Assembly: GCA_001938485.1 (NCBI GenBank)
Contig: MQRK01170873.1
Coordinates: 14,585 to 64,004, forward strand
Direction of reading: 5' to 3'
Length of the DNA: 49,420 bases
Source of the DNA: Girardia tigrina
Lineage: Eukaryota
A model generated the notes under the pieces. That model ran no database searches and was not told the origin of the DNA. It saw nothing but the letters and a program-made list of their open reading frames with translations. The translations under genes were made by a program, and so were the position numbers. Numbering within the stretch: position 1 is the first letter of the stretch; each line of letters opens with the position of its first letter. Positions 4,110-28,680 of this stretch are shown in pieces.

Positions 4110-5965
4110 AAATTTCTTTCATGAATGATATTTACGAGGAGAAGAGGAATCATAGCGTCTATCAAATGTCTGATGTCTATTCATTCACAAGCATTCAGTT
4201 CATATCTCATGCTTGCTACAAGTGAAGATCGAGAAGTGCGGGTGCTTGGGCTTAAAGTTTTTCAAAAAGGTTATTTGTTGAAATGGAAAAGAGATAATCA
4301 TATCAGAGAAATTACCGATATCGCGTCTTTATCACACCGCGATTTATATTCAATTTGCAGACAGTTAGTAGGCATCTACCCGGTGGCGGGATGGCTGCGT
4401 CCGACTTGTTCTTATATGAAACGCCTCAGTGAGGGCAACTGAGAGGACAAAGTGGGAGAAGAGATAATAGAAAAAGTCAAGTGGGTGATGAGAAGAGTCG
4501 AGGAAGCCGACCCGTGCAAGGGGGAATGGTTTATAAATAACTGTGAAGAAGGAATTTTATGGTGTGATGCGAGTTCGATTGCGATTGGCGTTGTGCTCGA
4601 GGTCAAGGGTCAGACAATCGAAGATGCATCATGGTTAAGGAAAACAGACGACTCCCATCATATATATTTAGCTGAACTGGAAGCTGTAGTAAAAGGTTTA
4701 AATTTATGTATTAAATGGGGGATGAAAAGGGTAATAGTTAAATCGGACAACAAGTCGGTCCTATCCTGGATATCCACGGTGTTAGCGTTTCGTGAGAAAT
4801 TGTGTACAAGAGCGTTTAGTGAACTGTTGATTAAAAGAAGATTGGCGATCATTAAAAAGTTATGTCAAGAATATCAAATGGAAGTGACGATTGAATTTGT
4901 GTACAACGAGAAGAATCGGGTGGACGAGTTGACAAGAGTACTAAATAGAGTAAAACAGAGTAATTGTTGTTTATTAATTTCAGGTAGTCGCGATAGTCTT
5001 GTGGAACTTCACAACAAATGTCATCTGGGAGCAAGAAGGATGCAGTACTTATGTAAAAAACTGAACATTGATGCATCAAATACGGACATTAAAAAATTAA
5101 TTTCTAGATGTCAACAATGTCAATCGATTAACCCAGCGCCGATAAAATGGAAAGAGGGAACGCTGAATGTTAGTGAAATTTGGACGAGATTAGCCATAGA
5201 TGTTACGAAATATAATCAGAGGAAGTATTTGAGTATTATCGATTGTCGTCCGTCACGTTTCGCAATTTGGAAGCTGATTAGATCGGAGGGTGCTGATTCG
5301 ATTATCTCGGAAATAGCAAGTGTATTTTCTGAACACGGTACGCCTCAAGAACTACTAGTCGATAATTATAGTTCGTTTACCATTATTTTTTCTTAGGTTA
5401 ATGAAAAAATGGAATGTTGAAGTCATTTATCGGGCCGTAAATAGACAAAATTGCAACGGTATTATATAGTGAAATCATAGAACGGTCAAGAGAATAGCGT
5501 GTCGTTCTAATATATACATTTTAGAAGCCGTATGGTGGTACAATAATACTCCTTTCGACAATAAGCAGCCGCCGAGTCTGAAGATGTATAATTATATACC
5601 AACTGGATTAGAATCGCTAAGAAAGACAGTTAGAACGGAGAACGTAGAGCGGTCAAAATTTGTAGAAAACCATCTGGTGTGGATATAACCGAATCAAAGT
5701 ACACCTTGTACACGAAAGTGGATGACGAGGACGGTGGTGAAACGATTAGATTCGGTAAAGTTTTTGATTAATTGTAATGGTTTTTGTAGCCCGCGGCATG
5801 TTGCGGATATTAGACCGCGACAACCGGATCAAACCCCGGCGCTGAGTCTAGAGTTCGGGAATGATGATGACGACGAGTCGGCAAAAGAGAGAAATTAGAA
5901 ACCTGAAAGAGTGCGACCACGATGGGAAACACGCCGATAAGCCTACCTCGATGATTTTATTGTTA
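4110..5965 (+). mobile_element. Ty3/gypsy LTR retrotransposon pol remnant (RT C-terminus, RNase H, integrase), with stops and frameshifts
   Basis: RNase H: WCDASSIAIGVVL, AELEAVVKGL, KSDNKSV. Integrase HHCC: HNKCHLG...CQQCQ. Integrase core: LAIDVT...IIDC.PSRFAIW...HGTPQELLVDN, continuing after a frameshift as NGII**NHRTVK...AVWWYNNTP. Domain order is RH then IN. Confidence 0.92.
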
Positions 5966-5974
5966 ATGGGACGA

Positions 5975-6210
5975 ATCGGTGGGCGGTGGTGCATGGTCAT
6001 TTTTAGTTGGTGGAGCTATTTTTCTGGTTAATTCCGTTAACGAACGAGACTCTCACCTGCTAAATAGTACATTTGTGTTAAATCGCAAATGCTGACTTCT
6101 TAGAGGAATAAATAGCGTTTAGCTAAATGAAATGGAGCAATAACAGGTCTGTGATGCCCTTAGATGTCCGGGGCCGCACGTGCGCTACAATGGCAGTACC
6201 AGTGAGTTTT
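5975..6210 (+). pseudogene. Eukaryotic 18S rRNA fragment (3' major domain), mutated orphan copy
   Basis: Universal SSU motifs GGTGGTGCATGG, TTAGTTGGTGGAG, CTGGTTAATTCCG.TAACGAACGAGAC, CTTCTTAGAGG and GCAATAACAGGTCTGTGATGCCCTTAGATGTCCGGGGCCGCACG.GCGCTACA. It is only ~235 nt, with substitutions at conserved sites. Confidence 0.95.
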
Positions 6211-13889: not shown

Positions 13890-14565
13890 AATTCTTAAAA
13901 ATTCATAATCGTATTTCCTGTTTTATTTTTTAATGGAAAAACTCAAGCATATTTTGTATATAAATCTATAATTGTTAAAATATATTTATAATCTTCTTTT
14001 TTCATTTCAACTAAATCCGCTCCCCAAATATCATCTTTATTAAAAACTTTAATTTTTAAAAAAGTTTTTAGGTTTTCTGTATTCTTTATGTAATTCATCT
14101 TTATTTAAATAACCACCGAAGGTAGGACTTTGTCCGCCACCAAACATAATTTTTAACTTCATTGCATTTTTTACAAGCATTCTAGCAATTATTTCTCCAA
14201 TGGTTGGCTTTTTAATTTCATTTAAATCTTGAATTAAATCAATATCTGCTTTTTGTCTTGAACGAATATCTTCATTTTTATAAGCAATATCATGTTTTAA
14301 TGTTGCTTCATCAACACGATTTATTGGTTCTTCTCCAGGATTTGGATTATTATTTTTATCTAATCTGATGTCTAAACGTGTTCTTGGTCCAGCATAAGCG
14401 TAGCCCGGAAGATGGTGTTCTCCTTTATAGTTTGACCATTTTGGTAATTTTTGAAAGTGTTTGAAGATCTCCTTGTTTTGTAATATGTTTTTGTGTTTTC
14501 TCATGTTTAGCTTTGTTAGATTTTGAAATGTATTTTTCACATGAGTTACAAAAATATTTAGTCAT
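13890..14565 (-). mobile_element. Polinton/Maverick (adintovirus) ORF: C2H2 zinc finger + parvovirus-type PLA2 + retroviral-like integrase N-terminal part, frameshifted
   Basis: ATG at 14565 gives MTKYFCNSCEKYISKSNKAKHEKTQKH. Then HLPGYAYAGPRTRL...PINRVDEATLKHDIAY...RQKAD (PLA2 Ca-loop and HD motif). Then ELHKEYRK / KIKVFNKDDIWGADLVEMKKEDYKYILTIIDLYTKYA*VFPLKNKTG (Polinton integrase). Confidence 0.92.
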
Positions 14566-26440: not shown

Positions 26441-26704
26441 ATTATGATCTGTTTATAAAAACAAATATTAAAAAAATGGATTTCTAGTGTTGGGGAATAG
26501 TTTTAATTTTTGTTTTTTTTTTAAAAAAAATATAAAGGAATAAATTAATTAACATACTTTTGTGTTGCATAAAAATAAATGATCATAAGAATCATAATGG
26601 ATTGACAAAAGCATTAGGCAAATTAAATCCATCGGATGAAGACATGGATGAAATTCTCCACGGTGAATCTTGAGACAGCACAAAAGATTGACAGGATTAA
26701 ACAA

Positions 26705-27020
26705 TTTACGAATCTTTTCTCCAAATTCTCCAGTTCTTTCGAATGGCTATACCATCGGTTCTTGTAGTTCGGACGATTGGCAACGTCAAATGCATTAATT
26801 TCAAGCTCCATTGTTTGAAGCAGATCCTTTGCATCGACAAACAAGATCTCGATTTTTATGTGTTTTTGAGAATCATTTGATTTCATATCCACATTTTTGT
26901 GGCATTCGATTATACCTCTGAGATAAGTAATGAGCTGACCGAAGCAATAAGTTATTTCACTAGTTATATTTCCATATTGTTTTTTTCGTGGTTTTCATGA
27001 ATCGAAGGCATTTTTGACAT
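26705..27020 (-). pseudogene. VTI1A: VTI1-like SNARE N-terminal (Habc) exon with frameshift
   Basis: HE/KQYGNITSEIT...EILFVDAKDLLQTMELEINAFDVANRPNYKNRWYSHSKELENLEKRF aligns with VTI1A EQDFAVLTAEIT...EEAKELLEQMDLEVREIPPQSRGMYSNRMRSYKQEMGKLETDF. Similarity ends at a GTAAAT donor-like site. Confidence 0.8.
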
Positions 27021-28199
27021 AATTAAAAATTATATTAAAAAAAATATATTAAAAATAAAATAAATAGAATGAAGCTTTACCCACTCCTGGGGTATCCTCG
27101 GGGATGGGGCATAATCGATGCTCCATCCCTCCGGACAATCCCGGAGTCGGGCATATCTTTTTACCTGTTTTTTTTGTTGATTTTTTTTTAGCAGAAATAT
27201 TTTTATCCTGATCGTTTTGTTGGAAAATGAATGAATTTCAAAAAATAAAATTGTGAGTCTTTCTATGTCTACTCTCCAATCGGGAGAGTAGACATTAATT
27301 TCCTCGATTGGGGAAATTCCCCAATGTTAATAACCCAAAAAAGTGCAATGAAAAAATGGAGCAATTAGGGAATAATTCCCTAGAAAATTTATGGGCTTTT
27401 AGCCCGAATATTATTTTAAAAAAAATTTATAAATTTTTTTAAAATTAATATATATATATTTATATATTTTAATTAATTTATATTGTGATATATAGGCCAA
27501 AATAAGTATAAAAAGGCCAAAAAACTTTTATGGAAAAAAGGAAAAATCTCGACAAAACTAAAAGGACAAAATTTTGTAAGGAATCAAGCTTATCAACAGA
27601 AATAAATTATCCTTGGAAGAAGCTAATTCAAATTGTATAAATAAGAATAACATTTTTTTTGGAGAGTAATCTGATCAACAGTAACCTGTATAGGTGAAAG
27701 CATCAGACGTTTTCTTTTTAAAAATCAATTCTATTATTTGAATTCAAATTGAGCTGGAGTAACCTGCAATAGGTGAAGCTCATTTGTAATATAATTTTTG
27801 AGAATCTCGCCTCCAATCAATAATCTAATTGTACAAGTTGTTTTTAAAGCAATTGTAATTTGTTTGAATCAATAAAAATTTATTTCGAAATATTTTGTGT
27901 TGAACAAAGTTATAATCGAGCTCAAATTTAATCTGTGAATTCGGAAGCGGTACACCATCAAAAATCCTTCTGATAATTTTAAAATTTTGTTGGCTTGTTG
28001 TTAAACTCCCAACACTAGGTCAAAACACATTTATAATTTTCCTTACTTTTTCTTGATACTGAATAATAATTTCTCTAATAATGTGTTTAAAATAAATATT
28101 TAAACAACTTTAAATAAGATATTATATTTTATTGGAATTACGAAACTAAAAATAGAACGTAATAGTGCAAATATTAAAAATGTAAATATTTTTAAAAAA

Positions 28200-28304: not shown

Positions 28305-28680
28305 CCAAAAACTAATGCTTACGAAAGGTAACAAGCAAAACTATAGTTGAAAGAAGAGTATTATTACCTTGAGCAGGGAATGATTTTAAAGAAAATCCAT
28401 AGAAAGTCGATCTTTCAAAAATCAGCTTGGCTCCAACCTTATATTGAGTTTAAAATACAAAAAAGAACAGAAGCCAAGCAAAGGAGGTATAGTTTTGGAG
28501 ATGTCTTCTTCAAGCTATTATATAACTTTTTCTATGGTAAAACCCTTGAAAATGTCCGCGATTATTCAGATATCGAGTTTGTAAGCGATATTAAAATATA
28601 TTAGAGACTTGCCGGTAGAGTAAATTATAACGGATTTATTGCGTTTCATAGTAAATTATGTACAATTTTATGTAATTTTT
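28305..28680 (+). mobile_element. Polinton protein-primed DNA polymerase B fragment
   Basis: YYLEQGMILKKIHR...FQKSAWLQPYIEFKIQKRTEAK...FFKLLYNFFYGKTLENVR (motif B, K-x3-N-x2-YGK, in Polinton context). Confidence 0.92.

Follow-up and report, generated by a model that had tools for sequence, protein, structure and literature searches.

Tandem hairpins with a probable loop E module in a solo Gypsy LTR of Girardia tigrina belong to a motif present in thousands of copies

The solo LTR and its Gypsy clade

The stretch of DNA analysed here (the window) covers 49,420 nucleotides of a Girardia tigrina contig (MQRK01170873.1, positions 14,585 to 64,004; assembly GCA_001938485.1). Two tandem hairpins lie in this window inside a 1,527-bp repeat, the features of which are collected in Table 1. 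A DNA search of the genome revealed a repeat with a sharp end near 28014, and the termini are TG...CA with short inverted ends, as in Ty3/Gypsy (Metaviridae) LTRs. The 4-bp target duplication of the window copy has counterparts of other sequence (ATAT, CATC, ATAT, and AAAT) at four sister copies, and the empty site is represented by a contig of run X1 that joins 26484 to 28017. A sister LTR of the same family (L012) continues via a PBS-like motif starting with TGG into gag, as read by eye. Based on the LTR ends, the target duplication, the empty site and the continuation of L012 into gag, the window copy is a solo LTR, and it belongs to an env-bearing Gypsy clade. The TGG-starting motif follows the LTR in L012, L200, and L214; a genome pattern search for the LTR end with TGG directly after it remained at control level (6 vs 11), because the motif sits about 9 nt further on.

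Table 1. Features of the solo LTR and its borders (positions in the window)
Feature	Position	Strand	Description and evidence
Target-site duplication, left copy	26484-26487	+	CTAG; sister copies have other 4-bp duplications
Solo LTR, Gypsy-type retrotransposon, 1,527 bp	26488-28014	+	TGTTGGG...CCCAACA ends, empty site, sister LTR reaching gag
v-SNARE (Vti1-like) captured gene fragment, 5' part of LTR	26626-26994	-	Pfam V-SNARE, E value 1.4e-6
TATA-like box, predicted LTR promoter	27507-27516	+	Motif recurs in sister LTRs
Weak candidate splice donor GTAATC, overlapping the base of hairpin 1	27666-27671	+	GT[A/T]A motif in 20 of 27 subfamily copies
Hairpin 1	27670-27707	+	Outer stem, AGUA/GAA (loop E-type) internal loop, 4-bp inner stem, GUAU loop; sequence, fold
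Hairpin 2	27745-27786	+	Core as in hairpin 1, GCAAU loop, other outer stem; sequence, fold
Candidate 3' splice sites, AG at 27801-27802 and 27836-27837	27796-27837	+	Sequence; distance like sister-family acceptors
AATAAA, predicted poly(A) signal	27871-27876	+	Sequence
Target-site duplication, right copy	28015-28018	+	CTAG; sequence

Both hairpins are on the sense strand of the LTR, about 170 nt behind the TATA-like box and ahead of AATAAA. They would fall in the R region, as delimited by these two motifs. A 5' LTR beside gag at C247009:738-1194 is devoid of the hairpin, which was apparently lost there by deletion between short repeats, a GT..AG segment of about 40 nt being left. The v-SNARE fragment in the 5' part of the LTR is intronless and antisense; it is common to L151, L152, and L156 and absent from other LTR copies, the slot measuring 587 nt in the window LTR against about 100 nt in L155, L158, and L159. 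Its presence in several LTR copies and not in others indicates captured host sequence that spread with the LTR. The 5' part of the LTR also includes GC-rich inverted repeats at 27075-27150 and 27265-27330, the former being very deep in run X1.

The first idea for the hairpins, a Polinton gene-junction terminator, was given up in view of the LTR ends and the target duplication. The original prediction had placed them at the stop of a decayed minus-strand ORF (27780-28080) close to a pPolB fragment. That interval straddles the LTR end at 28014, and every minus frame has at least one stop in all 15 copies tested, including the window's own; the pPolB-like frame is situated outside the LTR insertion, so that both associations were abandoned. 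This frame (28347-28601, plus strand) resembles family B polymerase motifs by eye, returns no Pfam match and lies 333 nt outside the LTR. Elsewhere in the window, a minus-strand frame at 14049-14561 encodes a parvovirus-type phospholipase A2-like domain (PF08398, E value 2.3e-9), a domain type that occurs in Polinton-like elements, and a small-subunit rRNA fragment (5908-6186, plus strand; Rfam RF02542, 72 bits) stands just behind a broken LTR-retrotransposon pol frame (4125-5396).

The gene order of a sister element was read from neighbouring stretches of six contigs and comprises gag, a fusion protein of the Monjiviricetes type (Pfam Monjiviricetes_fusion), and, in sequence, RVT_1, RT_RNaseH, and rve (integrase), as in Gypsy elements. 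After the integrase come a predicted membrane-protein ORF and an exonuclease of the RNase T family. An element of this layout is found at C249883:44095-54068, and stops and nested insertions interrupt the copies encountered. Hairpins occur in the LTRs of the element, often as a tandem pair, and at one internal site just before the exonuclease frame; the window LTR and the internal site have only the 19-nt core in common. The product of the exonuclease gene (L171:869-2068, L433) has a fold like that of ISG20 (Z 19.2, rmsd 2.3, 161 residues aligned). Its N-terminal domain is confidently modelled as cupin/AlkB-like with invariant P, N, and H residues; a fold search with this domain gave matches of the cupin/2OG-oxygenase type with Z no higher than 8.3, which does not suffice for a functional assignment, and its scores in the ESM Atlas were all under 0.9. 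Relatives with both domains were found at 26-58% identity. The gene is also provided with TATA- and CCAAT-like motifs of its own, located ahead of the predicted first intron.

Fold, copy number and covariation of the hairpin core

In letters and coordinates the two hairpins are exactly as originally predicted. Their shared core (27680-27698 in hairpin 1, 27758-27777 in hairpin 2) occurs twice in the window, whereas shuffled sequences average 0.00 occurrences and none of 100 reaches two. The minimum-energy fold contains both stems. The energy of the 141-nt hairpin stretch is by itself unremarkable (z -0.69; 45 of 200 shuffles as good), and as the stretch is not unusually stable, the case for the hairpins rests on comparison. 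A model (R1) trained on 4-nt loops only matches hairpin 1 (E value 2.4e-4), which belonged to its training set, and does not pick up hairpin 2. Rfam searches with the hairpin region and the whole window returned no family at gathering score near the site, the best E value (0.38) being located elsewhere in the region.

In the genome from which the window derives (1.43 Gb), a search with the exact core returned 292 matches and one with the reversed control 1; with a relaxed pattern the counts were 4,975 and 0, respectively, in agreement with the repeated element that had been predicted. An additional 1,408 copies have C opposite A at pair 1, bringing the module to more than 6,000 copies in LTRs and in the accessory-gene intron, where copy counts do not equal independent events. 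The small motif of which the hairpins of the window form one copy is strongly conserved and occurs thousands of times.

The pattern of change in the inner stem differs by position. Pair 1 is changed on both sides in 842 matches (control 0), mostly to U-A, and pair 4 in 2,014 matches (control 28), mostly to C-G. At pair 4 the states are U-A, C-G, and U-G, the last accounting for 328 matches with the GUAA loop alone (19 among the first 100 matches listed, counted by eye), and C-A for just 47 of the 4,975. Mismatches are tolerated at pair 1, with C-A in the 1,408 copies and A-A in one subfamily; C-A here is equivalent to a U-G pair if read on the opposite strand. Double changes of the central CC/GG pairs are nearly absent (7 vs 2 and 10 vs 6 in the controls), and this near-fixation suggests sequence-specific recognition. 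In an alignment of 29 representatives (A1), from which one chance-like match (L169:9006) was left out, pairing of the inner stem reaches 100% and 12 positions show double changes, a number reached in 0 of 500 shuffles, in a sample biased by patterns that fix AGTA/GAA and favour double changes. An unbiased sample was obtained by picking 30 LTRs by their flanking motifs (mean identity 65%). AGTA is present in 28 of these and GAA likewise in 28, and column conservation amounts to 0.95 at AGTA, 0.98 in the loop, 0.97 at GAA, and 0.93 at the donor GTAA, while neighbouring sequence reaches 0.67-0.72; the acceptor region is conserved within the same 0.93-0.98 range as motif, loop and donor. The conserved islands of the hairpin are the loop together with AGUA, GAA, and CC/GG. 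Loops of the GUAU or 5-nt GNNNU type form the majority, and GUAA is also common. Tandem pairs make up 27 of 136 groups, the other 109 being single hairpins.

The outer stems change in sequence between families and still pair with their own partners, as the original prediction had held for the two hairpins of the window. The mean pairing energy is -4.1 kcal/mol with the own partner and -2.2 +/- 0.33 kcal/mol when partners are swapped, with 0 of 2000 swaps as good. Pairing is better on the sense strand in 22 of 30 cases and on the antisense strand in 5, and the outer stems have a sense-strand excess of G-U pairs (27 vs 11). They also shift register and are weak in the tandem family, with 56% of cells paired in one fixed register. 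As to orientation, the 3' end of an LTR was found downstream of 69 of 142 hairpins, and one looks antisense. AGUA and GAA are conserved on opposite strands between two helices, as is typical of loop E, and the motif likely folds as RNA in the LTR sense transcript to form a loop E (bulged-G) module.

Searches were also extended to other sequence collections. Viral contigs contained about 460 exact-core matches, which is near a rough chance estimate, with no tandem pairs among the 120 viewed; a tighter pattern left 9 stretches, and a protein scan 1 weak locus. In metagenomes, 120 loci were recovered from 46 distinct contexts, chiefly 23S rRNA of bacteria and coincidences in coding sequence (14 loci read), and an LSU rRNA match was obtained in 2 of the 20 loci scanned for it. 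No relative of the element was found in metagenomes by BLAST. Some bacterial 23S rRNAs (L274, L363) have an identical AGUA-ACCC-GUAU-GGGU-GAA helix at a variable position, and about 46 of the 120 metagenome matches are in such a context. In four related phage-like contigs (L270, L294, L299, L374), the stop codon of a homologous gene marks the start of the 19-mer, and a conserved intergenic stretch comes after it.

Predicted introns around the hairpin

The hairpin lies inside segments bounded by GTAA and AG, both in sister LTRs and upstream of the ISG20-like exonuclease gene of the element. Outside the window's subfamily, 74 of 87 hairpins, which are related copies, are preceded by GTAA at a distance of 30-95 nt, against 33 and 17 of 87 in two control windows, and a pyrimidine-rich YAG is usually positioned 23-57 nt downstream. 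In the window's subfamily GTAA is found at this distance in only 1 of 15 cases, and the sole candidate donor (27666), which overlaps the stem, is missing in 7 of 27 copies.

At the internal site, 22 copies were examined, of which 18 have both splice sites, with an upstream ATG in 16 of the 18. The ATG exon contains 22 coding nt in 14 of the 16 copies with an ATG and ends in phase 1, and the predicted intron measures 86-99 nt across all three frame classes. Removal of the segment would bring the ATG in frame with the long exonuclease ORF in 13 of 18 copies; with the segment left in, the frame stops after 11-31 codons. A distant clade, the exonuclease of which is about 44-57% identical, has the ATG exon at 9 of 14 hairpins, with 25 nt and phase 1 in all nine, and in frame in 6 of the 9 (one copy, L230, is counted in both sets). 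SL trans-splicing at the internal acceptor was considered as well but need not be invoked, given the conserved cis donor and its in-phase ATG exon.

Genomic copies retain the segments almost throughout. One count gave 1,583 long copies and 1 short, the latter imprecise; a second gave 68 long (6 unrelated by eye) and 3 short, which look unrelated; and the window's subfamily has 11 long and 0 short. Precise intron loss was found in none of these genomic copies, and if the segments are introns, it follows that only unspliced RNA gets copied. When contigs of four runs were compared with each of two LTRs, no GT-AG joint was found at the predicted sites and the joints present did not match the predicted introns; these contigs carry no start, strand or splice information, and an RNA origin is a guess for all except X2. 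From the conservation of phase we infer with some confidence that the internal exonuclease segment is a spliced intron. The LTR segments are probably spliced introns also, although this is held less firmly, and for the segment of the window's subfamily the same assignment is the most tentative of the three.

Possible functions and comparison with known systems

On balance, we favour a function of the hairpin as a protein-binding RNA tag on the intron-retaining genomic RNA, comparable to Psi, RxRE or CTE. In the proposed mechanism the hairpin would fold in the sense RNA of the Gypsy LTR as a loop E (bulged-G) module, and a bound protein would tag the intron-retaining genomic RNA for export or packaging and hold off splicing. 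Spliced RNA would have lost the hairpin and be translated. The unspliced form, presumably the one that is copied, would keep it, an arrangement reminiscent of retroviruses, in which Psi lies behind the major splice donor and Rex-type elements lie in the LTR. A variable outer stem and a covarying inner pair, combined with fixed AGUA, GAA, CC/GG, and loop, fit a protein site. The candidate ligands would be, in order, Gag as a first guess, a host export or splicing factor, and an accessory protein that the element encodes. A CCHC zinc knuckle was not detected in the gag of the element, so that Gag would need another binding mode. A further-reaching version, which as a whole we regard as unlikely, is a switch in the style of complex retroviruses, with one loop E hairpin placed in each of the element's introns. 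A protein that the element itself encodes, either Gag or the ISG20-like exonuclease together with the cupin-like domain, would read this hairpin and decide between spliced mRNA and packaged genomic RNA. If true, an RNA-protein circuit of the Rev/Rex-like or autoregulatory kind would be described for the first time among LTR elements outside the true retroviruses.

Several other readings can be set against a tag on genomic RNA. A role in poly(A)-site choice or in transcription within R is quite unlikely, whether the hairpin would help to suppress the 5' LTR poly(A) signal through the nearby donor and U1 snRNP, in the manner of foamy viruses, or act in a TAR-like manner. The hairpin lies behind the TATA box and ahead of AATAAA, a conserved donor precedes it, and foamy viruses employ a donor upstream of the poly(A) signal together with RNA structure (PMC3694450, available part), yet this would leave unexplained why the motif also occurs in the intron of the exonuclease gene, at a great distance from every LTR poly(A) site. 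An autoregulatory splicing switch, in which the exonuclease with its predicted N-terminal cupin/AlkB-like fold would bind the hairpin in its own first intron and in the LTR and block splicing, is quite doubtful too. It would be consistent with an intron that contains the hairpin and gates the exonuclease frame, with the retention of this layout between exonucleases as divergent as those of the two clades, and with the ISG20-like fold; however, the cupin/2OG match of the N-terminal domain at Z of about 8 shows no RNA-binding function, and LTR copies far outnumber exonuclease genes. Docking between RNAs, by which the GUAA/GUAU loop of one hairpin would contact the CC/GG pairs or the loop E of another and dimerise or compact genomic RNA, seems very unlikely. 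GNRA loops dock on CC:GG, the CC/GG pairs are invariant here, GUAA loops are common, tandem pairs are frequent, and the identical 19-mer forms a variable helix in some bacterial 23S rRNAs, but most loops are GUAU or 5-nt GNNNU rather than GNRA, and single hairpins are in the majority.

A site that acts at the level of DNA, either a palindrome for a dimeric transcription factor or a remnant of the 5S rRNA C-box as in Cassandra-type LTRs, is very improbable. Although the inner arms form an inverted repeat and C-A is common at pair 1, the spacer varies between 4 and 5 nt, the outer stems pair whatever their sequence and with G-U in excess on the sense strand, and U-G is far commoner than C-A at pair 4. 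One hairpin variant does have nine letters in common with the host 5S gene after AGTA; nevertheless, the scores of three LTR R regions against the host 5S did not stand out from those of shuffled sequence (174, 112, and 12 shuffles of 200 as good), these three do not exhibit the 5S-like region of Cassandra/Helenus-type LTRs, and the Rfam 5S model has no match in the window. In the host 5S rRNA gene (L439), TATGGGTGA stands four letters after AGTA and equals nine letters of that variant, the whole alignment being not significant. The original prediction had offered an undescribed ribozyme or a protein-binding motif, and of these the repeated structured RNA with a loop E module, perhaps bound by protein, is supported by the present results, whereas a self-cleaving ribozyme is extremely unlikely: no Rfam family matches, conservation is confined to a core of about 19 nt and a stem of variable sequence, a second conserved domain is lacking, a genomic RNA cleaved within R or within an intron could no longer serve as template, and an RNA-library contig (X2) runs across both hairpins.

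The loop E module and solo LTRs are already known, as are exonuclease ORFs in LTR elements (PMC5408684). Among the openly accessible papers searched, including the available portions of PMC4558846, PMC10886601, and PMC3601003, none was found to describe a hairpin of this kind from the LTRs or introns of Gypsy elements. Packaging and export signals of Gypsy-type retrotransposons are hard to find, being poorly conserved in sequence, as was said of the PSI of TRIM elements (PMC4558846, in part). With a recurrent 40-nt module, the manner in which an intron-bearing LTR element keeps its genomic RNA unspliced becomes directly testable using short RNAs and minigenes, and solo LTRs spread a predicted promoter, a candidate 5' intron and the proposed tag through the host genome. 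The RNA motif is real and well supported, and we infer for it a function as a retroelement cis-signal.

Among known elements, the planarian Gypsy elements Burro/GYPSM1 have env between gag and pol (PMC6431247), and rotifer LTR elements encode a DEDD exonuclease as ORF3 (PMC5408684); neither source, in the part available, mentions a hairpin or an LTR intron. The element described here has in common with them a mononegavirus-like fusion protein between gag and pol and an accessory 3' exonuclease gene. It differs in its short LTRs (about 0.5-1.5 kb) and in a gag without a detected CCHC knuckle, Burro being compared by its published description, and its exonuclease is ISG20/RNase T-like as opposed to the RNase D-like DEDDy type of the rotifer elements.

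AGUA opposite GAA is the typical sarcin-ricin sequence, which, according to the accessible part of PMC13085918, occurs in RAGATH-18, the HCV IRES, RNase P, ROOL, and raiA; that part names no retrotransposon family with the motif. The likeness extends to the placement of AGUA/GAA between two helices and to the adjoining short capped stem, as in loop 3 of RAGATH-18. Here, in contrast, the predicted module would constitute a stand-alone cis element of about 40 nt in a retrotransposon, recognised from sequence, and not a part of a large RNA.

In the R region of foamy viruses, the major splice donor is upstream of the poly(A) signal and U1 binding depends on structure (PMC3694450, as far as available). 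Donor, RNA structure and AATAAA follow in the same order in a long R in both systems, whereas the Gypsy LTR has a predicted acceptor within R and the motif recurs internally. Structured elements on intron-containing retroviral RNA include the CTE of MPMV and the Rev/Rex response elements (PMC7551171, in part). As in CTE, RxRE, and Psi, the hairpin would be a structured sense-strand element, with repeated modules, kept by unspliced RNA only. It is much smaller, at about 40 nt versus 150-175 nt for CTE, and is further distinguished from CTE and RxRE by a loop E core without Rfam similarity, by its Gypsy host, and by its location in both the LTR and the predicted intron of an accessory gene.
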